64,000 bases of DNA from an uncultured delta proteobacterium (GCA_963700055.1 CAVOWH010000021.1:408-64407), one strand, 5' to 3'. Numbered from the stretch's first letter, positions 3,001 through 33,194 are shown. Translations and numbers: made by a program. Notes: generated by a model not told the origin, from the letters alone.

Positions 3001-3106
3001 CGGCAGTGCGCGACGTGGGCAAAGGCCGGCGGGGACGCACGCGGTGGGTCGCGGCGCGGTCCGCACCCAAGCCATGTAGACTCGGCCGCATGCGGAACGA
3101 CCGTCC

Positions 3107-7715: not shown

Positions 7716-7756
7716 TTTTAAGTCCGTTTAGAATTTTAATGATTCGGCTGTATTGC

Positions 7757-8373: not shown

Positions 8374-8427
8374 AGGGGCATGGGACAGAGGGCGGTTGGA
8401 TCGTGGCCGGAGCCACTCAAGTATCGA

Positions 8428-8448
8428 GGGTTCGGGGTTCGGGTTCAG
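8428..8448. repeat. Array of 7-nt units GGGTTCG (array A2, inverted relative to A1/A3)
   Basis: gggttcg gggttcg ggttcag; the reverse complement is CGAACCC-type units. Confidence 0.6.
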
Positions 8449-8564
8449 GAAATAATACAGGTCCACGGAGCCGAAACTTAGCAAAACTCGATTTGCGAAC
8501 AAACTGATTATGGTCACTGCCATTGCATTTGATTTTAGGCACTTTAAGCACTTTCTTCTCCCCC

Positions 8565-8585
8565 TGAACCCCGAACCCTGAACCC
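8565..8585. repeat. Array of 7-nt units YGAACCC (array A3)
   Basis: tgaaccc cgaaccc tgaaccc. With A2 it forms an imperfect inverted repeat enclosing an AT-rich ~115-nt spacer just upstream of putA. Confidence 0.6.
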
Positions 8586-8616
8586 TATCAACAAGAATTT
8601 CAACCCGGAGCGTCCT

Positions 8617-11600
8617 ATGCACCCAACGATCGATGAGCGCATCGTGGAAGCGGCCGTCTCTCAGGCTAAAAACTGGCAGGATCGGGCCAACGCCTTGCTG
8701 CAGCCGGAGGAAAAACGCCGCTACCGTCAGCTGGCGCGGCTGGTGGCCAACGCCGACGACAAGGTCCTCCTCACCGCCCTCATCGACCAGTGCTTCCGGT
8801 CCCGGGATGAACGCCGGGTGGCGGACCAGATGTGCCACCTACTGGCGGTCCACGGCATCCCGCGCTTTTTCTCCTTTTCCGAAAAGGTACTGATCCATCT
8901 GTTCATGCGCGCCGGCCGTTTCCTGCCGGACCGCACCGTTCCCCGCATCATCGCCAAAATGCGCGCCGACAGCCGCCATGCCATCATCTCCGGGGAGCAT
9001 GGGGCGCTTGGCGCCTACCTGGAACAACGGCGGGCGGAAGGCATGCGGGTCAGCGTGAATCACCTGGGCGAGGAAGTCCTCGGCGAGCAGGAGGCCCTCG
9101 CGCACATGGACACCTATCTCGCCGACCTGCGCGACCCGCGCATCGAAAGCATCGCCGTCAAGATCTCCACCGTCTGCGCCCAGATCCATCCCCTGCCCTT
9201 TGCGCAAATGGTCGACCGCATATCGGAGCGCCTGTCCATTCTCTACCGTGAAGCCGCGGCCCAGTCTTACACCCGGCCGGACGGCACCCGCGTCCCCAAA
9301 TCCGTCACCCTGGACATGGAGGCCTACCGGGACCTAGCGCTCACGGCGTCCGCCTTCACGCACGCCCTGGACCAGCCGGAGTTCCGAAACTTCTTCGCCG
9401 GCATGGCGCTGCAGGCCTATCTGCCCGACTCTTTCGGCATCCTTCAGGAGATCACCGCCTGGGCCCGCCGACGCGTGGATGCCGGCCACAGCCCGGTCAA
9501 GGTGCGCATCGTCAAGGGCGCCAACATGGAGATGGAGCTCATCGAGTCTTCGCTCAGCGGCTGGCCGCTCGCCCCCTACGACAACAAGCTCGACGTGGAC
9601 GCCAACTGGAAGCGCATGGTCGCCTTCGGCCTCGAGCCGGACCACATCCGCGCCGTGCGCCTCGGCGTGGCTTCGCACAACCTGTTCGACGTCGCCTTTG
9701 CATACCAGCTGGCCCGCCGCAACCAGGTGACGGAATTCTTCACTTTCGAAATGATCGAGGGCATGGCCAACCACGTGCGCCGCGCCGTGCGCGAAACCGG
9801 ACTGGACCTGCTGGCCTATGCGCCGGTGGCCGAAGACCGGCATTTCATCAACGCCGTCGCCTACCTCATCCGCCGCCTGGACGAAAACACCGGGCACCGG
9901 AACTTTCTGCGCCACCTGAACCGGCTGCAGACCGGAACCGCCCCCTGGCAGATGCTGGCGGATCATTTCAGGGCTTCGGAGCGGCGCATTCTAACCGTCG
10001 GCTCACACCCCCACCGCACCCAGGATCGCCTGGCGGAGAACTTCCCCAAAGAGCGCGGCACCTATTACGAGGGCGAGTTCCGCAACGAGCCGGACACGGA
10101 CTGGTCGTTGGCTCCCAACCGCGCCTGGGCCGAGGCCATTCGCCGGCGCTGGATGAAGGCGCCAGGAGACGCACCCATCGACGTGCCGCTGGCGGCCGCC
10201 GGCAAGGAGATTGCGGCAGGCCGCAAAGTGTGCAAGTCCTGCGACCCCAACCAGCTCCCGACGGAGGTGGTCGTGGCGCGCTGCGCGCTGGCCAAAGCCG
10301 ACGACGTCAAGCGTGCCGTCGCCGCCGCCAAGGAAGACCCTGACGGCTGGCGCAAAACGACTCCCCGCCGCCGCCACCGCATCCTGTCGGCAGCTGCCAA
10401 CGAGATCCGCAAGGCACGCGGGGACCTGATCGGAGCGGCGGCCGCCACCACCGGCAAGATTTTCACCGAGGCCGACCCGGAGGTGTCCGAGGCCGTAGAC
10501 TTCGTCGAGTTATACCCGCACGCCGCCCGGTCCTATTTCGACATGCACACCCTCCGCTGCCGGGGAAAAGGCGTCGGGGTGGTGGTCTCGCCCTGGAACT
10601 TCCCCATCGCCATCCCCTGCGGCGGCATCACGGCGGCATTGGCCGCCGGCAACACCGTGATCTTCAAGCCGTCGTCAGACGCGATCCTGGTCGGCTGGCT
10701 GCTCTGTCGATGCTTCTGGCGGGCAGGGATCTCTCGAAACGTTCTGCAGTTCCTGCCCTGCGAGGGCGGCAGCACCGGCGCACGGCTCACGGGCCACCTG
10801 GACGTCGATTTCATCATCCTGACCGGCGGCACCGACACCGGGCTGAGGATTCTGAAGGAGCGGCCGGATGCCCTGCTGGCCGCTGAAACCGGCGGGAAAA
10901 ACGCAACGATCGTCACCGCCATGTCCGACCGCGAGCAGGCCGTCGGCAACGCCCTCTATTCGGCCTTCGGCAACTCCGGGCAAAAATGCTCGGCCACCTC
11001 CCTGCTGATTCTGGAACGGGAAGTCTACGACGACGACAAGTTCAAGCGGCAACTGACGGATGCCGCCGCGACCTTCAAGACCGGTTCGGCCTGGGACTTC
11101 ACCAGCCGGATGGGCCCGCTCGTAAGGCCGCCCGCCAGCCCGTTGCGCGAAGCCCTGACCAGCCTTGAGCCCGGGGAGTCCTGGGCGCTGGAGCCGCGGA
11201 TACTCGCCGACAACGCGCAGCTGTGGACACCGGGGATCAAGTGGGGCGTGAGGCCAGGAAGCACGACGCACCTGACCGAGTTCTTCGGCCCTGTCCTGGG
11301 CGTCATGCGGGCCGAGAGCCTGGAGCAGGCCATCGCATTGACCAACCAGACCGGCTACGGCCTTACCTCCGGCCTGGAGAGCCTCGACCGCCGCGAGCAG
11401 GCCCTCTGGAAGGAGCACGCCAAGGCCGGCAACCTCTACGTGAACCGCGGCACCACCGGGGCCGTCGTTTTGCGGCAGCCCTTCGGCGGCATGGGCAAAT
11501 CCGCCCTGGGTGCGGGCATCAAGGCCGGCGGCCCGCATTACGTGACCCAGTTTTTCGAGGCCGATGAACTCGGCCCGCCGCAGTCGGGGCCGCATGGGGC

Positions 11601-12231
11601 AGGCCACCCCCTGCTGCACCTGGCCCAACGCTGGCAGCTCCGGCTGGACTGGCGGAAGTTCGGCAACGACACCGCCGACATCCGCAAGACGGTCCTCGCC
11701 ATCCGGAGCTATCTCTTTCGCGTCGAAGGCGAGTTCTCGCGCGAGCTGGACTTCTTCCACCTGCGCGGCCAGGACAACGTGCTCCGCCATCTCCCGGTCG
11801 GGACCGTGGCCGTGCGCCTGCACCCGCAGGACGGCCTGTTCGAAACCTTGGCCCGCATCGCCGCCGTCCAAGCCACCGGCAACCGCCTGCGGGTCAGCAT
11901 CCCCAAGGGCCTGGACACGCCGGCGACACGGTTCCTCTACGGTGCCGAGGGACGCCGCCTCACCGGCAGGGAGCCCGTGTTCCAGGAGACCGACCAAGAC
12001 CTCATCGCCCTTATCCCCAAGATCGACCGCATCCGCTATGCTGCGCCGGACCGGGTCCCGAAAGAGGTCTTCGCCGCCGCCGCCGAAACCGGCTTCTACA
12101 TCGCGCGCACGCCGGTCCGGATGGAAGGCCGCATCGAGCTCCTGCACTACTACCGCCAGCAGAGCGTGTGCACGAACTACCACCGCTACGGCAACTTGGG
12201 CTTCCGGGCAGGCGAATTTGACGAAGGCTGA
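8617..12231 (+). CDS. putA: Bifunctional proline dehydrogenase / 1-pyrroline-5-carboxylate dehydrogenase (PutA type without an obvious DNA-binding domain)
   Basis: Intact 1204-aa ORF. The PRODH-like region contains VSVNHLGEEVLGEQEA. ALDH motifs include VVSPWNFPIAIPCGGITAALAAGNTVIFKPS, ETGGKNATIV and FGNSGQKCSATS. Confidence 0.85.
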   Translation: MHPTIDERIVEAAVSQAKNWQDRANALLQPEEKRRYRQLARLVANADDKVLLTALIDQCFRSRDERRVADQMCHLLAVHGIPRFFSFSEKVLIHLFMRAGRFLPDRTVPRIIAKMRADSRHAIISGEHGALGAYLEQRRAEGMRVSVNHLGEEVLGEQEALAHMDTYLADLRDPRIESIAVKISTVCAQIHPLPFAQMVDRISERLSILYREAAAQSYTRPDGTRVPKSVTLDMEAYRDLALTASAFTHALDQPEFRNFFAGMALQAYLPDSFGILQEITAWARRRVDAGHSPVKVRIVKGANMEMELIESSLSGWPLAPYDNKLDVDANWKRMVAFGLEPDHIRAVRLGVASHNLFDVAFAYQLARRNQVTEFFTFEMIEGMANHVRRAVRETGLDLLAYAPVAEDRHFINAVAYLIRRLDENTGHRNFLRHLNRLQTGTAPWQMLADHFRASERRILTVGSHPHRTQDRLAENFPKERGTYYEGEFRNEPDTDWSLAPNRAWAEAIRRRWMKAPGDAPIDVPLAAAGKEIAAGRKVCKSCDPNQLPTEVVVARCALAKADDVKRAVAAAKEDPDGWRKTTPRRRHRILSAAANEIRKARGDLIGAAAATTGKIFTEADPEVSEAVDFVELYPHAARSYFDMHTLRCRGKGVGVVVSPWNFPIAIPCGGITAALAAGNTVIFKPSSDAILVGWLLCRCFWRAGISRNVLQFLPCEGGSTGARLTGHLDVDFIILTGGTDTGLRILKERPDALLAAETGGKNATIVTAMSDREQAVGNALYSAFGNSGQKCSATSLLILEREVYDDDKFKRQLTDAAATFKTGSAWDFTSRMGPLVRPPASPLREALTSLEPGESWALEPRILADNAQLWTPGIKWGVRPGSTTHLTEFFGPVLGVMRAESLEQAIALTNQTGYGLTSGLESLDRREQALWKEHAKAGNLYVNRGTTGAVVLRQPFGGMGKSALGAGIKAGGPHYVTQFFEADELGPPQSGPHGAGHPLLHLAQRWQLRLDWRKFGNDTADIRKTVLAIRSYLFRVEGEFSRELDFFHLRGQDNVLRHLPVGTVAVRLHPQDGLFETLARIAAVQATGNRLRVSIPKGLDTPATRFLYGAEGRRLTGREPVFQETDQDLIALIPKIDRIRYAAPDRVPKEVFAAAAETGFYIARTPVRMEGRIELLHYYRQQSVCTNYHRYGNLGFRAGEFDEG

Positions 12232-12410
12232 CGGGGGCATCCTGGCATTTTAAAAAGCGGCGACGGACCAAACCCTATCCGCTGGGCGATACCAAATGGC
12301 TTTCTGAGTTGACTCCCGCGGCCGAGCGAGTGTAATCTCAATCTGAGTGTCCTTGCAAGGTCTGTAGAATAAAAATCGGTTCAACCCTGCAGCGCAACGA
12401 TCCTCCGGCC

Positions 12411-13898
12411 ATGACGCTCAAATCGATGATACCGGTCATGCTGGCGCTCATGCTGGCACTGCTGGCGGGCGGCGCGGCGGCCGCCGATGGTGTCCGCCCG
12501 CCGGTGCGGGCCGGCAGCTTTTACCCCTCGGATCCCCGCGAGCTCAGCGAGCTGATTGACCGGCTCGGCCAGAGCGCCCGCAGCGTGCCGCAGGACCTCC
12601 CGGAAAGGCAGTCCCTGCGCGCGCTCATCCTGCCCCACGCCGGCTACCCGTATTCCGGTCCGACGGCGGCGCATGCCGCCCGCGTGCTTTCGGAGTATCA
12701 GTTCAAGACGGTGCTGCTGATGGGACCGGACCACTTCGTGGGCTTCCGCAGCGCCGCCGTTCCCACCGTTCAGGCGTTTCAGACGCCCCTTGGCAGGATC
12801 TCGGTGCACCCCGCCGCCGCCGACCTTCTGAAACAGCCGGAACTCTTCGCGCCCCTGCCGCCGGCCGACGACCGCGAGCATTCTCTGGAAGTCGTGCTGC
12901 CGTTTCTGCAGGCCTATCTCAAGTCCTTCCAGCTGGTTCCGGTGGTGGTCGGGCGTGCGGAGGCCGAGCGGATCTGCGCCGCCCTCCTGCCCCTGATCGA
13001 TCAGCAGACCCTCGTGGTGGTGAGCTCGGACCTGTCGCACTTCCTGCCCTATGCCGAGGCGCAGGCCAGAGACCGCCGGACCATCGAGGCGATCCTGGCG
13101 CGCGACCGCCGGGCGCTGCTTCAAGACGCCCAATCGGCCTGCGGCGCGCACCCGCTGGCGATCCTGCTGACCATGGCCGAGCGCTTCGGCTGGCGCCCGG
13201 TGCTGCTCAACTATCTCAACAGCGGCGACACCGCCGGCGACCGGTCCCGGGTGGTGGGGTACGCCGCCATCGCCTTTTTTGGGGAACCGCCCATGCCTGC
13301 CACGAATGAACCGAGTGAACTATTGGCGCCGGAAAAGGGCCAGGTGCTGGTAAAGCTTGCGCGCAGCACGCTGATGGAGAAATTCGGCCTGCCGCTGACG
13401 CCGGCCGAAGCCGAGCGGATGCGATCGGCGCTGAGCGACGCCTCGCTGCAGGCCCGCTGCGGCACGTTCGTAACGCTCAAACACCAGGGACGGCTGAGGG
13501 GCTGCATCGGCAACCTTTCCGCGTCCGATCCCCTGGCCGAGGGCGTCCGCCGTAATGCCATCAACGCGGCCTTCCACGACCCGCGGTTCTCGCCGCTCCA
13601 GGAAAAAGAGCTCGAGCAGATCGAGATCGAAGTCAGCGTGCTCACCGAGCCCCGGCCGCTGGCGTTCCGCGACCCGGAGGACCTGTTGCGCAAGCTGCGG
13701 CCGAACGTCGACGGGGTCATCATCCGCCAAGGTTACGCCAGCGCGACCTTCCTGCCCCAGGTCTGGGAGCAGCTCTTGAAAAAAGAGGATTTTCTGGGCC
13801 ACCTCTGCCTCAAAGCCGGGCTGCCCCGGGACGCATGGAAACATGGCAAACTCGAGGTGTCGACCTATCAGGTCCAGTACTTTGAAGAAGCCAAATGA
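12411..13898 (+). CDS. Fused AmmeMemoRadiSam system protein B (MEMO1-like) and protein A (AMMECR1-like), with N-terminal signal peptide
   Basis: N-terminus MTLKSMIPVMLALMLALLAGGAAAADG. Memo-type motifs ILPHAGYPYSGPTAAHA and VSSDLSHF. AMMECR1 motif CGTFVTLKHQGRLRGCIGN, followed by FHDPRFSPL. Confidence 0.8.
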   Translation: MTLKSMIPVMLALMLALLAGGAAAADGVRPPVRAGSFYPSDPRELSELIDRLGQSARSVPQDLPERQSLRALILPHAGYPYSGPTAAHAARVLSEYQFKTVLLMGPDHFVGFRSAAVPTVQAFQTPLGRISVHPAAADLLKQPELFAPLPPADDREHSLEVVLPFLQAYLKSFQLVPVVVGRAEAERICAALLPLIDQQTLVVVSSDLSHFLPYAEAQARDRRTIEAILARDRRALLQDAQSACGAHPLAILLTMAERFGWRPVLLNYLNSGDTAGDRSRVVGYAAIAFFGEPPMPATNEPSELLAPEKGQVLVKLARSTLMEKFGLPLTPAEAERMRSALSDASLQARCGTFVTLKHQGRLRGCIGNLSASDPLAEGVRRNAINAAFHDPRFSPLQEKELEQIEIEVSVLTEPRPLAFRDPEDLLRKLRPNVDGVIIRQGYASATFLPQVWEQLLKKEDFLGHLCLKAGLPRDAWKHGKLEVSTYQVQYFEEAK

Positions 13899-16005
13899 AA
13901 GGCGCCTCGTCGCCGTCGTCATCACAACGGGAATCGCCTCGGTCGTCACGCAGCTGGTTCTCATCCGCGAGTTCCTGAGCCAATTTCAAGGCAACGAGAT
14001 CGTCATCGCCCTGATCCTCTTCAGCTGGCTGGTGCTGGGCGGACTGGGGACGCTGCTGGCGCGGCCGGCGGCCGGCAGCCGGCTCGCCACACGCCAGGCC
14101 CTCGGCTGGCTTTCGCTCGCGTTGGTGCTCATTTCGACCCCCACCCTGCTCGGCGCCCGCCTGCTGCGGGACCTCGTCTTCACCCACGGCGCCTCCGTGG
14201 GCTTTTATCCCACGTTCGCCTACATCGCGGCCGTCGCGGCGCCCTACGCCCTGCTCATCGGATTTCTGCTGCCGCTCGGTCTCTTTGTGCTGAGGTCTCA
14301 AGTCCCGGATTACCCCGGCGCCCTGGTCTACGTTTGGGACAACATCGGCGACATCGGCGGCGGCGCCCTGTTTTCTTTCCTCATCGTTTTTTGGCTGACC
14401 CCCGTTCAGGCGGTCGTTGCCGCCCACCTGCCCCTGCTGGCGGCCGTTCTTTTCCTGCAGGGAACGGGCCGCCGGCCGGCGGCGGCCCGAATGCTGGCCG
14501 CCGCGGCGGTGCTTCTGACGCTGCTCGCCGCCCTGGCGGCGGAGAAGGCCACCCTAACGCCGTCCCGGGGCGAACTCGCCCACTACCGGGAAACTCGCTA
14601 CGGCCGCATCACGGTGGTCAGGCAGCAGGAGCTGGTCACGCTGTTCCAGGACGGCTCCCCCTTGTTGAGCAGCCAGGATGAGGCCTTGGCGGAGGAAATG
14701 GTGCACTTCCCGCTGGCCCAACTCGACGCGCCCAAGCGCATCCTGCTGATATCGGCGGCGGCCGGGGTGATGGAAGAGCTGGAAAAATACGACCTGGAGT
14801 CCATCGACTACGTCGAGCTCGACCCGGATCTCGCGGAGGTCCTCTTTGACTTCAACCTCCTGAAACCCATCCAACCGCTGCGCCGGATCCACGCCGACGG
14901 GCGCGCCTATCTGGCCGGGGCGCTGCCCGGCTACGACGCCATCCTGGTCAACCTCAACGATCCGCAGACCTACCAAACCAACCGCTTCTTCACCGATCGG
15001 TTCTTTTCCCTGGCGCGCGCGCGGCTGTCCGAACAGGGGGTGCTCGGCTTCTCGATGGGAGGTTTCGACAACTACCTCGCGGAACCGCAACGCCGCAAGC
15101 TCTCCTCCGTTTACCATACCGCCCGGCAGTATTTTCCGCACGTCCTGCTGCTGCCGGGCGCGCGCGTGTTCTTCATCTGCAGCAACCGCCCCCTTCAGGC
15201 CGGTATCCCCGATATGCTGAGGCGCAAAGGCATTGCAACCCTTTACATCAGCGCTTACTTTGACGGCAATGTCACGCCGGAGCGGATTTCATACCTGCGC
15301 GGCCAGATGGACCCGGCGGCGCCGGCCAACGCCGAGCTGGCCCCCTACGTGATGCGCGCCGTTTTCTCGGAGTGGTTCGCGAAGTTTCACTCATCGCCGC
15401 TGTGGTTCATGGGCGCCCTCGCCGCGGCGCTGGCGCTCTATTTGCGGCGCACGAGCCGCGTGGAGTTCATCCTGTTCAGCACCGGATGGATGACCATGGG
15501 CAGCGAGATCCTGGTCATTTTTGCGTTTCAGATTTTTTTTGGGTATATTTATTTCCAGATCGGCATCATCGTGACGGTCTTCCTGGCCGGTCTTCTCCCC
15601 GGGGCGCTCTGGGGGCGCCGGCTCGCCGCGCGGGGCCGGGCCGTTCTGATTCTGTCGGATGTCGCGCTCATCGCCCTCCTGGGTGCCACCTTGGCCGCCG
15701 TGCATGCGGGCGACCGCCTGGGGCAGGCGTTTTACCTCTTCCTCGGTTTCACGGTTTCCTTCGCCTGCGGCCTGCAGGTTCCGGCGGCATTGCGGTTGAG
15801 AGGGGACAGCGGCCGGGCGGTCACGGCGGTTTTTTCAGCGGACCTGATCGGAGCGGCCTTGGGGACGCTGGTGACGAGCACGATTCTCATCCCCTATCTG
15901 GGGATCACGGGGGCGATCGGCGCGCTGCTGGGCTTGAAAGTGCTGAGCCTCCTCATAGCGGGTACCCTGCATGAAGACCCTGTCGCGAAGACAGTTCCTG
16001 GTTGA
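13843..16005 (+). CDS. Polytopic membrane protein with central spermidine-synthase-like (SpeE-fold) domain
   Basis: TM-rich N- and C-terminal thirds. The central domain has YRETRYGRITVVRQQELVTLFQDG and ILLISAAAGVMEELEKYDLESIDYVELDPDL (the Gly-rich loop is degenerate). A more likely start is TTG 13882 (MKKPNERRLVAVVI), which reduces the overlap with the upstream gene. Confidence 0.7.
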   Translation: MANSRCRPIRSSTLKKPNERRLVAVVITTGIASVVTQLVLIREFLSQFQGNEIVIALILFSWLVLGGLGTLLARPAAGSRLATRQALGWLSLALVLISTPTLLGARLLRDLVFTHGASVGFYPTFAYIAAVAAPYALLIGFLLPLGLFVLRSQVPDYPGALVYVWDNIGDIGGGALFSFLIVFWLTPVQAVVAAHLPLLAAVLFLQGTGRRPAAARMLAAAAVLLTLLAALAAEKATLTPSRGELAHYRETRYGRITVVRQQELVTLFQDGSPLLSSQDEALAEEMVHFPLAQLDAPKRILLISAAAGVMEELEKYDLESIDYVELDPDLAEVLFDFNLLKPIQPLRRIHADGRAYLAGALPGYDAILVNLNDPQTYQTNRFFTDRFFSLARARLSEQGVLGFSMGGFDNYLAEPQRRKLSSVYHTARQYFPHVLLLPGARVFFICSNRPLQAGIPDMLRRKGIATLYISAYFDGNVTPERISYLRGQMDPAAPANAELAPYVMRAVFSEWFAKFHSSPLWFMGALAAALALYLRRTSRVEFILFSTGWMTMGSEILVIFAFQIFFGYIYFQIGIIVTVFLAGLLPGALWGRRLAARGRAVLILSDVALIALLGATLAAVHAGDRLGQAFYLFLGFTVSFACGLQVPAALRLRGDSGRAVTAVFSADLIGAALGTLVTSTILIPYLGITGAIGALLGLKVLSLLIAGTLHEDPVAKTVPG

Positions 16006-17152
16006 CGGCGCCTGCCTGGCCGCATCCTGCACGGCAGCGGCCGCCCTCGGACCTTTCACCGCCTGCGTTTCCAGGGCATGGGCTCAGGAAGACGTCAGCG
16101 GCACGGTCTTCAAAGGGGACGGCCCGAAACAGCCTTGGAAATGGTCCCGGGAGGGATACGCCTACCGGAGCCTGGGCGAAAAGCAGGTGACCTGCCTGAT
16201 CTGCCCCAATCACTGTGCGCTTTCCCCCGGTGACCGCAGTGTCTGCCGCTCCAAGGTCAACGTGGACGGCAAGCTCTACAGCCTGGCCTACGGCAACCCC
16301 TGCGCCGTGCACATCGACCCGATCGAGAAGAAGCCGCTCTACCATTTTGCCCCCCGCAGCAAGTCTTTCTCGCTCGCCGCCGCCGGCTGCAACTTCCGCT
16401 GCCTGAACTGCCAGAACTGGGAGATCTCCCAGGCCAAGCCCCACGAGGTGCAGCACCGCGAGCTCTTCCCGGCCGAGGCGGCCGCCGCCGCAAAGCAGGC
16501 CGGCTGCCATTCCATCGCCTACACCTACTCCGAGCCGGTCACCTTCTACGAATACATGCTGGACACGGCCCGGGCCGCGCGCGAGGCCGGCCTGCGCAAC
16601 GTCCTGATCTCGAACGGCTACATCAACCGCGGGCCGCTGATCGACCTCTGCCGGGTGCTCGACGCCGCCAACATCAACCTCAAGGCCTACAGCGACGCGA
16701 TCTACCGCAAACTGAACGGCGGCCGGCTCGAACCGGTGCTTTCCACGTTGAAGACCCTGCACGACCAGGGGGTCCATCTCGAAATCACCAACCTCGTCGT
16801 GCCCACCTATGTGGACGACGAGGACCTGGTGCGACGCATGTGCGCCTGGATTCTGAAGGAAGTCGGCCCGAACCACCCCCTGCACTTCCTGCGGTTTCAC
16901 CCCCTCTACAAGCTGGACCGCCTGCCGCCGACGCCCGTGTCCACCCTGGTACGGTTCCGGGAGATAGCGCTGGCGGAAGGCATCCGCTACGCCTACGTCG
17001 GCAACGTCCCCAACCATGAGGGCAACCACACCTATTGCCATAACTGCCGCACGCTGGTGGTCGCCCGCGCCGGCTATTTCATCCGCGAGGTCCACCTGAA
17101 CAGCCACCGCTGCGCAACCTGCGGCACACCCATACCGGGTGTTTGGGCATAG
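15971..17152 (+). CDS. AmmeMemoRadiSam system radical SAM enzyme with twin-arginine (Tat) signal
   Basis: MKTLSRRQFLVDGACLAASCTAAAALGPFTACVSRAWA-QE fits a Tat motif with an AxA cleavage site. Radical SAM CNFRCLNCQNW. Also N-terminal CLICPNHC...CRSK and C-terminal CHNC...CATC Cys clusters. Confidence 0.8.
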   Translation: MKTLSRRQFLVDGACLAASCTAAAALGPFTACVSRAWAQEDVSGTVFKGDGPKQPWKWSREGYAYRSLGEKQVTCLICPNHCALSPGDRSVCRSKVNVDGKLYSLAYGNPCAVHIDPIEKKPLYHFAPRSKSFSLAAAGCNFRCLNCQNWEISQAKPHEVQHRELFPAEAAAAAKQAGCHSIAYTYSEPVTFYEYMLDTARAAREAGLRNVLISNGYINRGPLIDLCRVLDAANINLKAYSDAIYRKLNGGRLEPVLSTLKTLHDQGVHLEITNLVVPTYVDDEDLVRRMCAWILKEVGPNHPLHFLRFHPLYKLDRLPPTPVSTLVRFREIALAEGIRYAYVGNVPNHEGNHTYCHNCRTLVVARAGYFIREVHLNSHRCATCGTPIPGVWA

Positions 17153-17388
17153 ACGGCAGAGAGAAAAACATGAATAATCCGCTGTGGGCCCAGCCTCACG
17201 GAAGGAGATCGTCGCTCCTCGTCCGAATGAGGGCGCCGATGCCCTCGAAAAAGTCTCTGCACGGCATCCAGACTGGCTGACTCCGTAAAAGGATGATCGG
17301 TAGCTATCAATCGTTTTAGGCTTCTTGCCATTCGAGGTGTCGGAGTATAATACTTCCATAGAATCGGGAATTTCAAAAAGATATTCGT

Positions 17389-17592
17389 TTGAAGGATATA
17401 GCATTTTTTAGAAACTTCAAAATCAATAACGAGCTTGGAGTGCTGACATGGGCAGACGAAATAGATGTTGCGCCTGAAACACTTTATGCTGAAACAACTG
17501 GTTCTCCGCTGCCCGACTGGATGAATCTCCAAGAAGCCACCACTTCGGCGAACATGTCGCGCTTCAGCCGATCTCGTGTAATCGACGGCTGA
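17389..17592 (+). pseudogene. Possible DUF2442-like small protein, C-terminal half only
   Basis: FFRNFKINNELGVLTWADEIDVAPETLY resembles the C-terminal half of DUF2442 proteins. Upstream in frame there are stops, so the N-terminal half is missing. Confidence 0.3.
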
Positions 17593-17719
17593 GCCTGCCA
17601 TTACGATCGGCCAGCACCGCATCCGGGTGAACGATCAGTTCCGTGTGTGCTTTCGGTGGACAGATGCAGGCGCTGAAGACGTCGAGAAGGCATGGCAATT
17701 GATCGACGCCGCGCTCTAA
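17582..17719 (+). pseudogene. HigB-type (killer protein) toxin fragment
   Basis: Frame 2 reads ...HRIRVNDQFRVCFRWTDAGAEDVE..., matching the conserved IRINDQWRICFRW...DVEI core of HigB/RelE-fold toxins. There is no start codon, and both the N-terminal half and the native C-terminus are absent. Confidence 0.45.
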
Positions 17720-17981
17720 CCCGCGCATGAACAAGGACGCACAGACAATGAAAGGCTGGAGATGAAATGAAACAGGCCAATCGCTGGAGTAGAAGCCTTT
17801 CGATCAGATGTGGCTAAGCCCTGCGCTGGTTCCGTCATTTAGGGCAGCATGGATAGACCGTAGAGCCAAACATGGCGGGAATGGCAGCGACCGAGATCAC
17901 GTGTGGATTGAGATGGATGTGTCGTGGGGCTATGGTAAGCAAATCACAACCAATCCCTCTGTGTCAGGATATTTTGATTTT

Positions 17982-18017
17982 ATCCGACATATCACCAAAC
18001 GGCAATTTCTGAGATAT
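17982..18017 (+). repeat. Copy C of the atccgacRtatcacc element
   Basis: atccgacatatcaccaaacggcaatttctgagatat aligns by eye at about 75 percent with 26877-26910. Confidence 0.5.
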
Positions 18018-18129
18018 TTTAACCCAATCTCATGCGATTATAGCCCTCAGAATCCTTCGAAGCCGCAATAAATCTGCACTTCCTTGAATCGATACCTTTC
18101 ATCTGCGGTGGCCTATATTCTGGAACCGC

Positions 18130-18423
18130 TTATGCCTGATAAGGCGTTTCTTAGGAACTGGGTGCGGTTGATCCAAGAAATTTATGAAGTGGATCCGCTG
18201 GTGTGCCCCAGGTCCGAGGGGGAAATGCGAGTGATTGTATTCATCGAAGATCAGGAGGTGATCCGCAAGATCCTCACCCATCTGGGGCTGTGGCTGACTA
18301 AGGCCCGGCCCCGGCCGGGTAGCCCACGCTCCCTCGGAACTGGTTGCTGCACCTTTCGATGACTGGCCGGCGCCCAGCGCCGACGATTACCTCATCGATC
18401 CGCTGTATCCCGACGAAGCGTAA
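18130..18423 (+). mobile_element. IS91-family (Y2 HUH-type) transposase, C-terminal remnant, frameshifted
   Basis: WVRLIQEIYEVDPLVCPRSEGEMRVIVFIEDQEVIRKILTHLGLW matches the conserved IS91-family C-terminus; the CPxCxGxM zinc motif has decayed to CPRSEGEM. The tail DDWPAPSADDYLIDPLYPDEA-stop reads in another frame. Confidence 0.6.
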
Positions 18424-18737
18424 ATTTTGAAAGATCCCTCGGACCGACGAGCCAAGATTTGCCCGAAAACAGGCGAAAACGGGCCTGAGCGGGTGAATTT
18501 TCGGATTGACACACACTGAATGCTTGTTATTTATTTAACTACGGTGGGTGGCGAAGTGTCGCTCCCATATTCTGAGGCATACGGATGCCCGAACCGCAAT
18601 AATACTCTCGGGCAACTGCTACCCCCCCTAAATGCGAGTTCTTATCCTTCGCTCGACGCTCGACAACGTCGATCGCGGCATCGACGCATTGCGGCATCGA
18701 AGTAGCTTTCATCCACTCATTGGATGGGGGTGACCCC

Positions 18738-26835: not shown

Positions 26836-26910
26836 TAATCTGCAATGATTTTATGTTGTTGACTGCCTGAAATTTCATCCGACGTATCACCGAAGAGCCG
26901 TTTCTGATAT
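26836..26910 (+). repeat. Copy B of the taatctgYaat...atccgacgtat element
   Basis: taatctgcaat (26836) and atccgacgtatcaccgaagagccgtttctgatat (26877). It is a direct repeat of copy A on the other side of the nim-like gene. Confidence 0.55.
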
Positions 26911-27007
26911 ACTAGCTACCTATCCCATATCGTCAAAAATTTCTCACGGAATTGGTGTTGCTCCTAAGAGCTCATCATGAGATGGTAGTAAGTAGTCGTT
27001 TTATAAA

Positions 27008-27048
27008 GGAGAAGGCGGACACACATGCGCAGGGTATCCGCCTTCTTA
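27008..27048 (-). terminator. Rho-independent terminator candidate for the OsmC-like gene
   Basis: Stem gaaggcgga (27011-19) / tccgccttc (27037-45). On the minus strand it is followed by tttataaaa. Confidence 0.45.
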
Positions 27049-27061
27049 ATTGGAATCTATT

Positions 27062-27640
27062 TTATTCAACAACCAGTTTTGAATCGAGTTTGATCGCATT
27101 AGCTACGTTAAATCGATTTGGGGACGTAGCACAAACGGCTTCGTGAACCTTCTGAAACTGTTGTGGCGTTCCATTTCCCTTTATGTGAACGGTATAGCGA
27201 ATTTTATCATACCCGGGCTTTACATTCGGATCAAGACCCAAGAATCCACGCAGATCAATGTCGCCCTCAGTTTCAATTCTGAGCTCCTCCAATTCGATCC
27301 CCTCCATTGAGCAGCCAACCACGTAACCGACCATGATACAGCCATTCAGCGCCGCCATGAGATATTCCTGAGGATTGGCAAATTTGTTGGTACCGCCAAG
27401 CTCAGTGGGCTCATCAATTTGGATGGTAAAATCTTTCTTGATATACTCCTTGCCAAATCCGTATCCCTTAACTTTTGTATCTGAGCGGGTGCCTCCCTTC
27501 CAATGACTGCTTACATGCCAGTGAGTATTCGCGTTTTCAGGATCTTTAGCCACATGGCCAATCAAGGCCTTAACCCCTTCGGTATTAATGCCATTTACCA
27601 CAGTTGGTTTAATTTTATCGTCATCTCTTGTTTTCTGCAA
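27062..27640 (-). CDS. OsmC/Ohr-family peroxiredoxin-like protein
   Basis: TTG start 7 nt after AGGAGG. PQEYLMAALNGCIMVGYVVGCSMEGIELEELRIETEGDIDLRGFLG and AVCATSPN contain the two conserved Cys regions of the OsmC family. Confidence 0.8.
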   Translation of the reverse strand: MQKTRDDDKIKPTVVNGINTEGVKALIGHVAKDPENANTHWHVSSHWKGGTRSDTKVKGYGFGKEYIKKDFTIQIDEPTELGGTNKFANPQEYLMAALNGCIMVGYVVGCSMEGIELEELRIETEGDIDLRGFLGLDPNVKPGYDKIRYTVHIKGNGTPQQFQKVHEAVCATSPNRFNVANAIKLDSKLVVE

Positions 27641-28149
27641 GATTAAGTCCTCCTATTTCTACGAGAAAATGAAATCGTAGAAAACACCTGCTGCTGAGAA
27701 AATATAAGGCCAGGCAACAGTCACTCTAAGGTGGATAGAAGGTGTGTCTCATATGGAGTGGTGTCAACTGTTACGAAATTGCCCTGAATTTTCCAATTCC
27801 ATCCACGCCAGCGTCAGCTGTAACAAATGATAGTCCGGCGCCACTCCGTGCCAATTCCCTTTCTGATCCAATCTATCGGCGCAGCGGTGTTTTTTGGGAA
27901 TTGAGAGGGGGTATTGGAAAGAGATTAGAAGTTTCCCTGCTGACCCTTATTTCTGAGAGCAAAACAGTCAGTGAACTCCAGTTCTGCCGGAGGTCACTGA
28001 CCGTAATCTCCTTCCAATTTTTCCCGGTGAATGAGCAGTTTTATCTTTGGTAGCGACCCTGTCTCGTCTATTCTGTCAATTCATCATTTCGGCATTATCT
28101 TATTGGACAGGTACAAGGATGTGATAACAGCTTTCGATAGGAGGAAGAC

Positions 28150-28917
28150 ATGAGCTTTTCAGGAAAACAAGCGCTGATTGTGGGCGGAAGCAGCGGAATG
28201 GGGCTGCAGGCAGGCAGCCTGCTCCTCAAGGCCGGGGCCTTTGTGACGATAGTCGGCAGCCGGAAGGAGAAGCTTGATCATGCGCTCAAGACTCTGGGCG
28301 TTGCTGACAAACTGCAGGCTTTTCAATGTGACCTGAGGCGCGATGCCGACGTTGAGCGATTGGTCCGCTATGTGGCTGAAAAAATGAAGGACGTGAAGTA
28401 CCTGGTTAACGCCGCTGGGGTCTTCTCGCCAAAATCCTTTCTGGAGCATACCGGCGAGGATTACGATGTGTACATGCGGCTCAACCGGGCCACCTTTTTC
28501 GTGACCCAGCAGGTGGCGAAAAACATGATCGAAAGCGAAGGCGGGGCCATTGTCAATGTGGGATCTATGTGGGCCCGTCAGGCAATCAAGGCGACGCCCT
28601 CCTCGGCGTATTCCATGGCCAAGGCCGGGCTGCATGCTCTCACCCAGCACCTTGCAATGGAATTGGCGGATCACAGCATTCGCGTCAATGCCGTGGCCCC
28701 AGCTGTGGTAGAGACACCAATCTACCAAGCCTTCATTGCCCCGGACAAGGTGCATGAGACACTCCAAGGTTTTAACGCCTTCCACCCAATCGGGCGTATC
28801 GGCACTCCCCAGGACGTAGCATCCGCGATCGTTTTTCTGCTGTCAGAGCAGGCAAGCTGGGTGACGGGTGCCGTTTGGGATGTGGACGGCGGCGTTATGG
28901 CCGGAAGAAACCAGTAA
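28150..28917 (+). CDS. Short-chain dehydrogenase/reductase (SDR) family oxidoreductase
   Basis: [15 protein letters not shown] (TGxxxGxG-type), NAAG, and [18 protein letters not shown] (YxxxK). Confidence 0.85.
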
Positions 28918-29476
28918 ACTCATGCCTGAGCGATTCATCAGCGAAGCCATCAGCCCCGTGGGGCAGTTGAAAATTTCACTGCCGCAGATCTTTACAGGAC
29001 TGTGAATAGGAGTTGGAATTATTTTAAATTGACAGACGAAAGGTGCAAAAAGGGAAAAGATAACATCCGGCGATGAATCCAATCTCTTTGCCGTTTTGAA
29101 TTTTTGGTGGTATTGGTTAGGTAATCGCAATCAAATCGCCCCTCAGACAATTGTGGATATGATCCCCGAGGGGGAATTACGGATAGATTGTGTCTCTGGC
29201 GTATATCCAGCGAAAATTGGTTGCCGTCCTCCTGGGGATATTGACAGCACAGATAGAGCTCCGTTTGATTTTAAAGAATTTCCGATAGACGTAATATATT
29301 GCAGCCGGATGTTTTTCCTATTCGAACAGGGTGTTCGGTCATCAGTTTGTTTGCTTTAATCTTGGTTATTGAACTTATTGAGTTGAGTTCTTTGAACCTT
29401 GACTCTGCTGTTTAGAATTCGAGCACTTAATCTCTAAGGCAATCATAGTATCCCCCACCTCATTCATTATGACCTC

Positions 29477-30565
29477 ATGGATCAGTCCATCGTCATAACA
29501 GGATCTTCCGGCTATCTGGGTTCTGCTCTTTGTGCGGATCTGGGAAGTGACCACCATGTCGTGGGAATTGACCGGAGGCCGCCCTCCCCCGCGCTCCGGC
29601 GGGCCGCGCCGCGGGCCGTCTGGGAGAACCTGGACATATCCGATGCGCCCGCCGTCTCAGACGCATTCCAGCGCACTCTTCATTCCCAGGGAAGAATAGA
29701 CTTCGTGATCCACTTCGCGGTCTATTACCATTACGGCCGCGGATGGCGTCAAGAGTACGACATCCACAACATTCAGGGCACCCGCAACGTCATCGCGGCC
29801 GCCTGCCGCTTCGGCGCTGGCCGGATCCTCTTCGCCGCGAGCATCGCAGCCCTCCTGCCTCCGCCCCCGGGCGAGGCCCTGACCGAAGACTCCTGCGACA
29901 TGGCGGATTTCCCGTATTGCCGGAGCAAGGCCGCCGGCGAACGATTGTGCGCGGAGCGCCTCGACGATCTCCCGGCCGTTGTCATGCGGATCGGCGGGGT
30001 TTTCAGCGACTGGTGCGAGCTGCCGCCGCTCTACAGCCTGATCCGGCTGTGGAGCCGATCTGGCCCGATCGGCCGCTGCATCCCCGGGCGCGGCCAAACG
30101 GGCTTCCCGTATATCCACCGCGACGAGTTGGTGCGCTTCGTGCGGCGCGTCATCGAGAAGAACCACATCCTGGGCCGCCACGAGGTCCTGTTTGCCTCCG
30201 AGGACAGCTGCACCTGCCATGCAGACCTGTTCCGGCCGATCCGCCGGCTTAGCGGGCAGAGCGCTTCCGCAGGCCCCATTCACGTACCCCCGCTGCTGGC
30301 GGTGCTGTTTCTCTACCTGAAGCTGGCCGCCAACGGCCTGCGCGCTCGCCAAACCTACGAGCAGCCCTGGATGCTGACCTATGCCGACCGGCCGCTACGC
30401 GTAAACACGAGCCTCACCCGGCAAAAACTGGACTGGAGGCCGCAGGATGAGTACAGTGTCATGAACCGCCTGCCGGTGCTGATGGAAAATTTCCGCCGCC
30501 ACCACCGCTACTGGAAAGACCGCAACATTCGGCGCAACGACGGCGTCTATGAATACGAACCTTGA
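29477..30565 (+). CDS. NAD-dependent epimerase/dehydratase family protein
   Basis: VITGSSGYLGSALCADL Rossmann motif and PYCRSKAAGE (YxxxK). The first ~90 nt look AT-richer than the rest of the gene. Confidence 0.7.
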   Translation: MDQSIVITGSSGYLGSALCADLGSDHHVVGIDRRPPSPALRRAAPRAVWENLDISDAPAVSDAFQRTLHSQGRIDFVIHFAVYYHYGRGWRQEYDIHNIQGTRNVIAAACRFGAGRILFAASIAALLPPPPGEALTEDSCDMADFPYCRSKAAGERLCAERLDDLPAVVMRIGGVFSDWCELPPLYSLIRLWSRSGPIGRCIPGRGQTGFPYIHRDELVRFVRRVIEKNHILGRHEVLFASEDSCTCHADLFRPIRRLSGQSASAGPIHVPPLLAVLFLYLKLAANGLRARQTYEQPWMLTYADRPLRVNTSLTRQKLDWRPQDEYSVMNRLPVLMENFRRHHRYWKDRNIRRNDGVYEYEP

Positions 30566-30580
30566 GGAGTTTGCGCGACC

Positions 30581-31351
30581 ATGACGCCGGTCCTCTTCAT
30601 CGGCCACGGCCACCCTCTGAACGCCATCCAGCGCAACGAATTCACGACCGCGCTGACGCAGGCGGCGGGAGAGTTGCCGCGGGCGGAGGCCATTCTCGTG
30701 GTGTCGGCCCACTGGCTCAGCCGCAACGGCATTGCCGTGTCCGCCACGGAATACCCTGAAACGATCTACGACTTCGGGCCGTTTCATCCCGATCTTTTCC
30801 GGATTACCTATCCGGCGCCGGGAGCGTCCCGGCAGGCGGACCGCGTTGCCGATCTCATAACGACTCCGGCCGTGCAGGTCGACCGCCGACGGGGCCTTGA
30901 CCACGGCGCATGGACGGTTTTGCGCCATCTGTTCCCGGCGGGCGATATACCGGTTTTCCAGCTGAGCATCGACATTGCGCAGCCGCCGCGCTTCCACTAC
31001 GATCTGGCCCGCCAGCTGCTTCCACTGCGGTCGGAAGGCGTCATGATCATCGGCAGCGGCAACATCGTGCACAATCTTCGACAGATCGACTGGGAGGATG
31101 CCAGCGCTCCCACGGAGGATTGGGCCAGGGCCTTCGACGAGACCGTCAAGGACCTTATCCTATCGAGCCGCCACCATGCCTTGATCGAATACGAGCAACT
31201 GGAGTTTGCCCGGACGGCCGTGCCCACCAACGACCACTACCTGCCAATGCTCTACGCCATCGGCCTGCATCAGCCTCAGGAAACCGTGCAGTTCCTGTTC
31301 GAAGGCTTTCAATACGCCAACATCAGCATGCGTTGCCTGCGCATCGGGTGA
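30581..31351 (+). CDS. ygiD: Class III extradiol dioxygenase, 4,5-DOPA dioxygenase (YgiD/LigB) family
   Basis: LFIGHGHPLNA, VVSAHW, YPAPG, GSGNIVHNL and NDHYLPMLYA are typical YgiD/DODA motifs. Confidence 0.75.
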   Translation: MTPVLFIGHGHPLNAIQRNEFTTALTQAAGELPRAEAILVVSAHWLSRNGIAVSATEYPETIYDFGPFHPDLFRITYPAPGASRQADRVADLITTPAVQVDRRRGLDHGAWTVLRHLFPAGDIPVFQLSIDIAQPPRFHYDLARQLLPLRSEGVMIIGSGNIVHNLRQIDWEDASAPTEDWARAFDETVKDLILSSRHHALIEYEQLEFARTAVPTNDHYLPMLYAIGLHQPQETVQFLFEGFQYANISMRCLRIG

Positions 31352-31502
31352 GAATGCGGATCATGGCGCTGCGCCATCCAGCCCGACCATGCAGTACCAC
31401 CTTTGAGGAAATGGCTTCCAGCTGCGATAACGTTCGCGGCAGGATGTCGCTCCCACGGGAAAAAAGCCTCACCGCCGTAGCTACAATACAATTACATTTT
31501 AA

Positions 31503-31531
31503 TTGACACGGACACGGTCATTGAAATAATT
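31503..31531 (+). promoter_or_regulatory. Sigma70-like promoter candidate for the TRAP operon
   Basis: TTGACA (31503-08), 17-nt spacer, ATAATT (31526-31). AGGAGG sits before the dctP ATG. Confidence 0.4.
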
Positions 31532-31605
31532 ATTTCGCATATTATGAATGGACATCAGCAGGTACCATCACACCCAAACCCGGCACCACCGGCAGGAGGG
31601 CAACG

Positions 31606-32631
31606 ATGAAAAAAGGGCAACTCGTGTGTTCGGCTCTGGCGGCAGCGTTCATCGGAATTCTGTTTTGCGTAACTCCCGTCCCGGCTCAAGCGGCGGATCC
31701 CATCAAGCTCAACTATTCTATTTTCTTTCCGGCCCCGCACAAGAATACCGTGCTCGCCACCGAATGGGCGCAGGAGGTCGAAATGCGCACCAACGGCGCC
31801 GTGAAGATCACCGTGTTCCCGGGCGGTACCCTGACGCCGGCGGACAAGTGCTACGATGGCGTTGTGAAGGGCATCTCCGACATCGGCATGTCGGTGCTCG
31901 GCTACACCCGCGGAAGGTTCCCGCTGTCCGAGGTCATCGACCTGCCGCTGGGTTACAAGAACGGCCTGGCAGCCACGAAGCTGATCAACGCCTATTATCA
32001 GAAGTTCAAACCCCAGGAGTTCAATGACGTCCAGGTCATGTATTTCCACGCGCACGGACCGGGCATCCTGAACACCAAGAAGCCGGTCAACAACCTCGAT
32101 GACCTGAAGGGCATGAAAATCGTCTGCCACGGCCTGTCCGCGAAGGTGGTGGGCGCCCTGGGCGCGACCCCCGTGGCCATGCCCATGCCCGAGCGCTACG
32201 ACGCGCTTCAAAAAGGCGTGGCCGAGGGCGGCGTGAACCCCATTGAGTCTTTAAAGGGCTGGAAACTCGCCGAAGTCATCAAGTCCACCACGGAAAACTT
32301 CGGTTCCGCCTACACCACCGGCTTCTTCGTCGTTATGAACAAGGACAAGTGGAAGTCCCTGCCCCCCGATGTACAGAAAGTCATAGAGACGGTCAACCTG
32401 GAGTGGATCGAAAAGACCGGCAAGGGCTGGGACGAGATCGACAAGGAGGGCAAGGAGTTCACCCTGTCCAAGGGCAACCAGGTCATCGCCTTGTCCAAGG
32501 AGGAAGACGAAAAATGGGCCAAACTGGTCCGGCCCATCCTGGACGAATACGTCGCCAACATGAAGATCAAGAATCTTCCCGGCGACGAGGCCGTCAAGTT
32601 CTGCCTGGAAGAGCTGAAGAAGCTCCAATAG
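31606..32631 (+). CDS. dctP: TRAP transporter substrate-binding protein (DctP family)
   Basis: Signal peptide MKKGQLVCSALAAAFIGILFCVTPVPAQA. The DctP-like body includes NYSIFFPAPH and GRFPLSEVIDLPLG. It is followed by the Q and M permease genes. Confidence 0.8.
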   Translation: MKKGQLVCSALAAAFIGILFCVTPVPAQAADPIKLNYSIFFPAPHKNTVLATEWAQEVEMRTNGAVKITVFPGGTLTPADKCYDGVVKGISDIGMSVLGYTRGRFPLSEVIDLPLGYKNGLAATKLINAYYQKFKPQEFNDVQVMYFHAHGPGILNTKKPVNNLDDLKGMKIVCHGLSAKVVGALGATPVAMPMPERYDALQKGVAEGGVNPIESLKGWKLAEVIKSTTENFGSAYTTGFFVVMNKDKWKSLPPDVQKVIETVNLEWIEKTGKGWDEIDKEGKEFTLSKGNQVIALSKEEDEKWAKLVRPILDEYVANMKIKNLPGDEAVKFCLEELKKLQ

Positions 32632-32711
32632 CATATCTTCGGGGGAAAGGATGATCTGCATCCTTTCCCTATTTTGTCGCCACCAACCGCCGGGGTGGAA
32701 AGGAGTGCTCC

Positions 32712-33194
32712 GTGGAGCGTCTGTTGAACGGTGTCGGGCGGTTGAGCCGCTTTATCAACGTCATCGCCGGCCTTGCCATCACGTTCATCATGTTTTTGAC
32801 GGTCCTCGACGTCATCCTGCGTTCCTTCCGGCGGCCGATCGTCGGGACCTATGAATTGGTGGCGTTTTCCGGGGCCGTGGTCGTCGGGTTCGCCATTCCC
32901 CTGACCTCGTGGATGCGCGGTCATATTTATGTCGACTTTTTCACCGGCAAGCTGTCCAGAACCGCCCGGTCGATTTTCAATCTTTTCACGCGCTGCCTGG
33001 GGATCGGCCTGTTTTTTCTAATCGGATGGAACCTGATCAAAGTGGGCATGGACCTGCAGCAATCCGGGGAAGTGTCGTTGACCCTGCAGCTGCCGTTTTA
33101 CCCCGTCGCCTATGGCGTCGCCGTTTCCTGCTTCGTGCAGTGCCTCGTTCTGCTGATGGACATGGTGAAGATCTTTCGGGGGGAATATGAGTGA
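32712..33194 (+). CDS. dctQ: TRAP transporter small permease (DctQ family)
   Basis: 160 aa with four hydrophobic segments. GTG start after GGAAAGGAG. It overlaps dctM by 8 nt. Confidence 0.7.
   Translation: MERLLNGVGRLSRFINVIAGLAITFIMFLTVLDVILRSFRRPIVGTYELVAFSGAVVVGFAIPLTSWMRGHIYVDFFTGKLSRTARSIFNLFTRCLGIGLFFLIGWNLIKVGMDLQQSGEVSLTLQLPFYPVAYGVAVSCFVQCLVLLMDMVKIFRGEYE

Follow-up and report, generated by a model that had tools for sequence, protein, structure and literature searches.

Probable piecemeal assembly of a variable region between putA and an epimerase gene in an uncultured delta proteobacterium

Between putA and a gene for an NAD-dependent epimerase/dehydratase, an uncultured delta proteobacterium carries about 17.2 kb of DNA that we describe here as part of a 64,000-nt stretch (GCA_963700055.1, CAVOWH010000021.1:408-64407; hereafter the window). 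We argue that this region was built by several independent events and not as one island, and that the interval between its two anchor genes is a hotspot; we put the probability of this reading at roughly 0.8. The original prediction, made from the sequence of the window alone, had proposed repeated insertion and decay at a hotspot in positions 17153-29476. This proposal is upheld: in relatives the anchors are adjacent or the interval is otherwise filled, near-identical modules occur elsewhere, and the region contains fragments of transposase and toxin genes.

A variable site between two conserved anchors

The relatives available for comparison are uncultured, metagenome-derived fragments (designated by L numbers), 80-88% identical to the window at the putA/epimerase locus. 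In L092 only ~85 bp separate the putA block (window 8603-12232) from the epimerase (window 29474 onward); L095 has a spacer of 329 bp and stays collinear with the window past the epimerase, up to 41232; in L094 a single saccharopine-dehydrogenase-like gene separates the two. The nucleotide identity of putA to these three loci is 80-84%. Since all three join putA to the epimerase in this way, the lineage-specific segment extends from 12233 to the epimerase upstream region (~29240/29473) and includes the operon of the AmmeMemoRadiSam system. As is typical of islands, the segment is absent from the same site in relatives, where putA is joined to the epimerase. The previously noted stretch 17153-29476 is the right-hand two thirds of this variable region, and neither its left boundary at 17152 nor its size of 12 kb was borne out: synteny breaks at 12232, at the putA stop (12231/12232), and it is the putA stop at 12231 that is joined in relatives to the epimerase at 29477, not position 17152. 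The intergenic DNA that follows putA showed no homology to the putA-epimerase spacers of relatives.

The site is variable among relatives. A metagenome scan with the epimerase as query gave 28 loci; upstream of the epimerase we found a multihaem cytochrome gene in L084, a TLC/MFS transporter in L096, an aminotransferase in L097, and a cyclase-TPR gene accompanied by a methyltransferase in L117 and by two tyrosine recombinases in L085. None of the window's modules was found upstream of the epimerase in relatives. On this right-hand side the homology of relatives begins, depending on the relative, at 29068, 29119, ~29237, ~29275, ~29405-29445 or 29474, and the breakpoints cluster near a TGACAGC heptamer at 29242, upstream of the epimerase start. 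No boundary lies within the epimerase gene, at whose 5′ end one had been suspected from the AT-richer first 90 nt: the GC dip is not unique to that block (0.52, compared with 0.53 in the third 90-nt block and 0.52-0.67 in relatives), which matches relatives at least as well as the remainder of the gene does. Among 5.8 billion proteins, the closest homologue of the epimerase shares 89% amino-acid identity with it (L117); exact-protein look-ups with the radical SAM enzyme, the epimerase and the short-chain dehydrogenase/reductase (SDR) gave no match. The LigB-family dioxygenase gene downstream of the epimerase (30605-31258) is missing in L092 and L095 and present in L081, L082, L085 and L088, apparently a second, small polymorphism adjoining the hotspot.

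The AmmeMemoRadiSam operon had been taken for backbone, but it belongs to the variable segment. A genome scan with its radical SAM protein identified two close relatives, L001 and L002, in which the operon is 87% and 82% identical in nucleotides; this identity is confined to window 12436-17152, and tblastx of both loci against the whole 64 kb revealed nothing shared beyond the operon. The flanks of the operon are common to L001 and L002, and partly to the more distant L018, and are absent from the window; relatives thus hold the operon in a different, conserved context, and L092, L094 and L095 do not have it between putA and the epimerase. The divergence from L001 (87%), together with a backbone-like GC content at third codon positions (GC3), fits relocation within the lineage better than foreign import. 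In L001, ~5.4 kb directly after the radical SAM stop (11183-16648), with two long open reading frames (ORFs) without a family match, is missing in L002; the downstream side of the operon is therefore variable in relatives too.

Composition and contents of the region

The expected collapse of coding density was confirmed: by ORF listing, intact genes make up 7089 of the 12324 bp (57%) of 17153-29476, as against ~93-100% of the flanks 8617-17152 and 29477-34488. Composition is patchy as predicted, with three GC dips (0.52 at 17-18.5 kb, 0.49 at 22-23.5 kb and 0.39-0.55 at 25.5-29.5 kb) against ~0.62-0.69 elsewhere. The dips at 17-18.5 and 22-23.5 kb are long non-coding stretches; the third corresponds to the AT-richer stretch noted before at ~25.98-29.45 kb. 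Measured by tetranucleotide distance from the remaining window sequence, strong deviation is confined to 25.5-29.5 kb (z = 4 to 7.5, with the peak of 7.5 at 26-28 kb); the WD40 gene has z ~2, and the remainder lies inside the backbone range. The predicted deviation from the backbone thus holds strongly for 25.5-29.5 kb and does not hold for the WD40 gene and the secreted/membrane pair, whose GC3 is host-like (Table 1). The last ~3.5 kb (25.5-29.5 kb) is the sole compositionally foreign part, and the uniform shift expected of a recombinase-integrated island was not found, the operon, the WD40 gene and the pair all having host-like GC3. Another compositionally distinct block is located at window 1-5000 (GC 0.69-0.73, tetranucleotide z 2-3.6).

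Table 1. Features of the variable region and its anchors (window coordinates)
Feature	Position	Strand	GC3	Evidence and remarks
putA (proline dehydrogenase/aldehyde dehydrogenase), left anchor	8617..12231	+		Pfam Pro_dh and Aldedh
AmmeMemoRadiSam operon: fused B/A protein, spermidine-synthase-like membrane protein, radical SAM enzyme	12411..17152	+	0.83-0.87	NCBIfam TIGR04335, TIGR04336, TIGR04337
Non-coding debris with DUF2442 C-terminal half and HigB-like toxin fragment	17153..18131	+
DUF2442 C-terminal half	17410-17493			Pfam E = 1e-4, profile positions 41-69/72
HigB-like fragment	17615-17680			HigB-like_toxin E = 0.006 (weak), profile positions 64-85/91
IS91-family remnant 1	18132..18660	+		Last ~90 transposase codons, frameshifted, stop 18423, then ~180-nt 3′ non-coding end
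Membrane protein (1022 aa), 7-bladed WD40 propeller in predicted TULIP/BPI-like core	18738..21806	+	0.83	Pfam WD40; AlphaFold (AF2); Foldseek
IS91-family remnant 2	22256..23205	+		Pfam Y2_Tnp E = 9e-8; interior replaced by other fragments
Partial copy of promoter-like repeat	22630..22829	+		TGACAGA at 22732
Gene pair: 172-aa signal-peptide protein and 562-aa polytopic membrane protein (24133-25821)	23574..25821	+	0.78-0.79
Full copy of dispersed promoter-like repeat	25862..26159	+		TGACAGC at 25921, then TTGACA-N16/17-GATAAG and conserved CATCCGAC box
557-bp unit with Nim-like PNPOx gene (26245-26709)	26161..26717	+	0.37
Partial copy of promoter-like repeat	26772..26911	+		nhmmer E = 1e-12; matches L085 1685-1796
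OsmC-like protein gene	27062..27640	-	0.45	Pfam OsmC
SDR-family oxidoreductase gene	28150..28917	+	0.67	Pfam adh_short_C2
Conserved epimerase upstream region, recurrent breakpoint zone, right edge	29068..29476	+		70-86% identical to many relatives
NAD-dependent epimerase/dehydratase, right anchor	29477..30565	+		Pfam Epimerase; LigB gene and TRAP transporter downstream
Backbone genes			0.78-0.89

The region contains decayed genes. A DUF2442-like half gene and a HigB-type toxin fragment are present as described earlier, the HigB match being weak (E = 0.006). Pfam and tblastn likewise confirm two IS91-family transposase remnants (18156-18423 and 22256-22567). With an intact 445-aa transposase of this family from Trichlorobacter lovleyi pIAE1 as the tblastn query, 18156-18320 in remnant 1 corresponds to aa 357-412 (57% identity), the remnant continuing in another frame to the stop at 18423, and 22256-22567 in remnant 2 corresponds to aa 139-239 (41% identity); these pieces (aa 139-239 and 357-412 of the 445-aa homologue) are homologous, and neither is a functional gene. 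Remnant 2 also retains a C-terminal trace, PFNDWPAP, at 23003-23026, followed by a 3′ non-coding end at 23030-23205 (nhmmer, E = 6e-47). This end and 18480-18660 form a first repeat family of ~180 nt, which has a GGGCAGC/GCTGCCC palindrome and the terminus ..TTCTTATCC. A third copy is present in L097, with none elsewhere in 1.25 Mb of loci, and the viral contigs scanned gave no match. We read the repeat as the putative IS91 3′ (oriIS-side) end, because it is placed after a transposase C-terminus in two copies; a terIS was looked for and none was identified. A leader RNA was also considered for this repeat and rejected: covariation among the three independent copies is negligible (-0.25 kcal/mol), and position favours an IS91 3′ end.

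The non-coding stretch 22613-23573 had been called structured, which we could not substantiate: it folds no better than shuffled sequence (z = -1.05), and Rfam gave no match in the region at the gathering threshold or at E up to 1. Its components are degraded remains of the second IS91 copy (interior and 3′ end), one of the repeat copies, and a 74-nt fragment (22887-22960) that is 85% identical, on the opposite strand, to 14637-14710 of a distantly related Desulfobacterales chromosome (L011). This fragment is probably part of a repeated element. We discarded its interpretation as a conserved RNA beside a ‘masked’ run in L011, as what looked masked is a plain scaffold gap of 100 N and Rfam had no match.

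The WD40 gene, thought to be an orphan, has 71 homologues (P0001-P0071), of which some are ~1020 aa long and some ~720 aa, the latter without the WD40 part. The propeller, present in about half of the family, is inserted between strands of the core, and homologue names include Acidobacteriota, Actinomycetota and Chloroflexota. AlphaFold predicted the window protein with a pLDDT of 84.7 and a WD40-less homologue with 78.7. By Foldseek, the predicted non-WD40 core matches OrfX3, P47, BPI and LBP (E 2e-9 to 6e-8, probability 1.0); the protein further includes a transmembrane helical hairpin and, at its C-terminus, a coiled-coil domain. The predicted fold thus resembles that of the TULIP/BPI-like lipid-binding proteins (BPI, LBP, clostridial P47 and OrfX3), from which the window protein differs in having the transmembrane hairpin, the C-terminal coiled coil and a propeller inserted in about half of the family; identity to them is 8-10% and TM-scores are low, at 0.17-0.34. 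Pfam and NCBIfam contain no model covering the core. On the strength of these structure predictions the protein appears to belong to a widespread, unannotated family with a TULIP/BPI-like core and an optional WD40 propeller. The gene is solitary and lies in a different context in every genome examined. In L109, which is 96.5% identical in nucleotides over 18272-21951, a PilZ gene is located on the left, unlike in the window, and the break at 18272 falls within IS91 remnant 1; five further contexts all differ. A link between this family and toxins of extracellular contractile injection systems was dropped, since it was seen in one context only and not repeated in four others.

The secreted and membrane protein pair, and after it the nim-like, OsmC-like and SDR genes, were recovered in the predicted order by ORF listing with Pfam and NCBIfam scans, the nim-like gene falling below the NimABCDEF cut-off. 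The pair has no family match in Pfam, NCBIfam, PADLOC or PHROG; for the 562-aa membrane protein, 2145 cluster representatives were found with E up to 1e-3, which places it in a large uncharacterised family. The nim-like gene scores 105.8 bits against the NimABCDEF NCBIfam equivalog (cut-off 260), which marks it as a PNPOx-fold relative and not a Nim equivalog. Copies of the unit that carries it, with 96% nucleotide identity, occur in L110-L115; the match ends sharply, the flanks are unrelated, and those copies lie in another low-GC islet beside an integrase; such a pattern points to recent exchange of the PNPOx unit. Searched against plasmids, the low-GC DNA matched nothing but generic SDR sequences (66-70% identity). 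Identities of 96% for the PNPOx unit and 96.5% for the WD40 copy, set against 89% for the epimerase, indicate that the accessory pieces are younger here than the backbone divergence. We also considered integron cassettes as an explanation for the PNPOx unit and the repeats, and rejected it: the window contains no IntI, the unit ends 8 bp past its stop, and there is no attC-like palindrome.

A dispersed promoter-like repeat and the TGACAGC core

A second repeat family occurs at 22630-22829, 25862-26159, 26772-26911 and 29068-29400. Both repeat families are restricted, within the window, to this region, as had been noted, and both are weak (68-80% identity). The second contains a ~260-nt promoter-like element, full at 25901-26159 and partial at 22727-22829 and 26772-26911, with TTGACA-N16/17-GATAAT-like hexamers (sigma-70-like), a CATCCGAC(R)(W)ATCAC box and an end reading ..CTTGTGATATAG. 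The element recurs in relatives (L117 1012-1269 and 3336-3439, L085 1682-1831, L084 1250-1349, and L097), mostly upstream of same-strand genes that are unrelated to one another, and may be a portable promoter or operator. Its left and right halves are combined differently among loci. The repeats start with TGACAGC and look like promoters, unlike integron attC sites with their GTTRRRY core.

The left edge of the repeat copies and the epimerase upstream region start at TGACAG[C/A] (22732, 25921 and 29242), and the pair module and the low-GC module of the window are each bracketed by such cores. The extended repeats around TGACAGC are modestly significant (E = 3e-5 to 1e-12). Rightward of TGACAGC, L084 and L085 have the same sequence (100% identity); leftward of it they are unrelated. 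In L085 a 2.2-kb element (7539-9777) contains two tandem tyrosine recombinase (Phage_integrase) genes and has 14-bp perfect terminal inverted repeats, CTGTACGTAATAAA. Including its repeats (7532-9784) it is flanked on both sides by 7-bp TGACAGC direct repeats, and it lies immediately upstream of the epimerase promoter region; in a relative, therefore, a mobile element has made use of precisely this core. Transposon-like elements that carry several tyrosine recombinase genes are known, RIT elements being an example. The L085 unit may be likened to these in its two tandem Phage_integrase genes and terminal inverted repeats, and departs from them in the number of recombinases, which is two and not three, in the 14 bp of its inverted repeats and in its 7-bp direct repeat. 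The unit does not occur in the window.

GC-rich palindromic intergenic elements of 100-140 nt, REP- or MITE-like (repetitive extragenic palindrome, miniature inverted-repeat transposable element) in appearance, occur in the window at 58103-58208 and 61434-61576; they are 83-90% identical to non-syntenic copies in relatives, one of which lies just after dctM in L088 and L092.

How the region may have been built

The following course of events would account for the observations. The AmmeMemoRadiSam operon, of the organism's own kind, would have moved in from another locus. It is followed by toxin-antitoxin debris. Two IS91-family rolling-circle elements are now reduced to their putative 3′ (oriIS-side) ends and transposase pieces, with the TULIP/WD40 gene joined to the first of these ends and the secreted/membrane pair placed downstream of the second, and a recent low-GC import (PNPOx, OsmC and SDR) would have settled beside the epimerase. 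New DNA would arrive again and again in the vicinity of the TGACAGC core or at the core itself, directly upstream of the epimerase promoter, through site-specific or transposon-like elements and through recombination between the dispersed promoter-like repeats, while one-ended transposition of IS91 would have brought adjacent genes in; deletion and mutation would afterwards have removed the mobility genes. Judged by the order of the GC3 values, the material nearest the epimerase would be the youngest. What the comparisons show directly is where the region begins and ends, its mosaic origin, its decay, and how variable the site is among relatives. We consider all three routes, namely IS91 delivery, insertion at TGACAGC and recombination between promoter-like repeats, to be plausible; the order of events and the enzymes responsible are our inference.

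IS91-family elements transpose by a rolling-circle mechanism and co-mobilise adjacent DNA, one-ended, in 1-10% of events (PMC13181058), and ISCR1 has outward promoters (PMC6218425). The region resembles such IS91/ISCR systems in its Y2-transposase remnants, in a putative 3′ end that persists beyond the transposase stop and has a subterminal palindrome, in unrelated cargo genes joined to the IS copies, and in the same IS-end/cargo junction in two genomic contexts. It differs from them in that both copies in the window are dead fragments, the cargo is now on the oriIS side, and the candidate outward promoter is a weak consensus match that was missed by the scan. The left break points differ, lying at 18084 in the window and at 18272 in L109; this would fit one-ended transposition that started at the second IS91 copy, passed the WD40 gene and ended within the first copy.

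Could the region have arrived all at once? If one genomic island or integrative element had inserted between putA and the epimerase on a single occasion, and had since degenerated there with loss of its integrase, this would explain why one contiguous block splits anchors adjacent in relatives, and recombinase-bearing elements do occur at this site in relatives. We regard such an origin as unlikely, since the block comprises at least three composition classes and two separate IS91 remnants, the closest copies of the operon, the WD40 gene and the PNPOx unit lie in mutually unrelated contexts, and flanking direct repeats, a tRNA and an integrase were all not found. The search for integrase and att-like sequences that had been suggested was indeed negative for the window and positive for a relative, L085, with its recombinases at this site: neither the ORFs nor the six-frame translations of the region contain a Phage_integrase or other recombinase domain, which we saw only in the relatives L085 and L110, the window has no tRNA or tmRNA, and no direct repeat pairs 12.2 kb with 29.4 kb. 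An anti-phage defence island and a prophage were also rejected; PADLOC gave only a generic WD40-repeat match, and PHROGs nothing specific.

Still less probable, in our estimation, is that the 17 kb is ancestral and was lost by deletion in L092, L094 and L095. Polarity is unproven with relatives 80-88% identical, and the operon and WD40 gene have host-like GC3, as this explanation would have it. Against it stand at least seven arrangements upstream of the epimerase in relatives, none with a window module, the operon's alternative context, conserved across L001, L002 and L018, and the low-GC genes and ~96% identical copies elsewhere, which indicate recent gain. An assembly chimera of pieces from different organisms of the metagenome would produce sharp GC steps such as those at ~25.9 kb and ~29.4 kb, the relatives of the window are all metagenome-derived, and several junctions lie outside the coverage of independent contigs. 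Yet 22512-26893, together with its high-GC/low-GC step, was recovered in assemblies from two other sequencing runs: the independent short-read contigs L123, L124 and L116 cover 22512-25944 (99.97%), 23634-26461 (100%) and 25969-26893 (100%), the first two matching the window at 99.97-100% identity over 22512-26461. The same relatives, moreover, resume synteny on both sides, and the junction repeats, at 68-80% identity, are too divergent to mislead an assembler. Thus, we consider a chimera the most improbable of these explanations.

Several observations weigh against assembly by repeated insertion, or against the routes proposed for it. An intact transposase or recombinase and a tRNA are both missing from the window, and the outer edges of the region carry no direct repeats; therefore no event can be assigned to an enzyme. 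The relatives are just 80-88% identical, and some of the differences could be deletions of theirs. The independent contigs span 22512-26893, and the junctions at 12232, 17152 and ~29240 fall outside. The identity of the 180-nt repeat as an IS91 3′ end rests on its position, its likeness to the Trichlorobacter lovleyi 3′ region being weak; the CTTG/GTTC target tetranucleotides are not adjacent to the putative IS91 ends; and the L109 breakpoint at 18272 is inside the transposase remnant and not at an IS end. The heptamer TGACAGC, finally, is expected by chance about once per 16 kb per strand and by itself carries little statistical weight.

A more specific form of the hotspot, which we put forward as a speculation with rather long odds, is a site of tandem accretion. 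An unclassified, transposon-like system of the L085 type, with its two tyrosine recombinases and 14-bp terminal inverted repeats, would add modules of ~3.2-3.3 kb flanked by (T/C)GACAG(C/A) one behind another in front of the epimerase, with IS91 one-ended transposition separately ferrying the TULIP/WD40 gene between phyla. The candidate modules, each starting with the ~260-nt promoter-like element, are 22732-25921 and 25921-29242 in the window and 1032-4273 in L117. If this were true, the accretion system would represent cassette-like gene capture distinct from integrons.

Hotspots of horizontal gene transfer, or regions of genomic plasticity, are sites at which variable gene sets lie between conserved core-gene anchors. 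The region described here resembles them: putA and the epimerase are adjacent in some relatives and split by different gene sets in others, and what lies between is accessory in content, mixed in composition and rich in mobile-element debris. It differs in that the comparison is made among fragments of uncultured relatives at 80-88% identity and not within the pangenome of one species, and such fragments do not allow polarity or rates of gain and loss to be quantified. The region is a new example of a well-known phenomenon, and leaves the current understanding of genome plasticity standing. It provides a clean case, in an uncultured sulfate-reducer-like lineage, of unrelated accessory genes piling up at one intergenic site. 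Since the AmmeMemoRadiSam operon is not fixed backbone here, the context in this genome is unsuited to neighbourhood-based inference on that still-uncharacterised system. The leads that the region offers are a TGACAGC core used by a two-recombinase element, a possibly portable promoter-like repeat, and an unannotated membrane protein family with a predicted TULIP/BPI-like fold.

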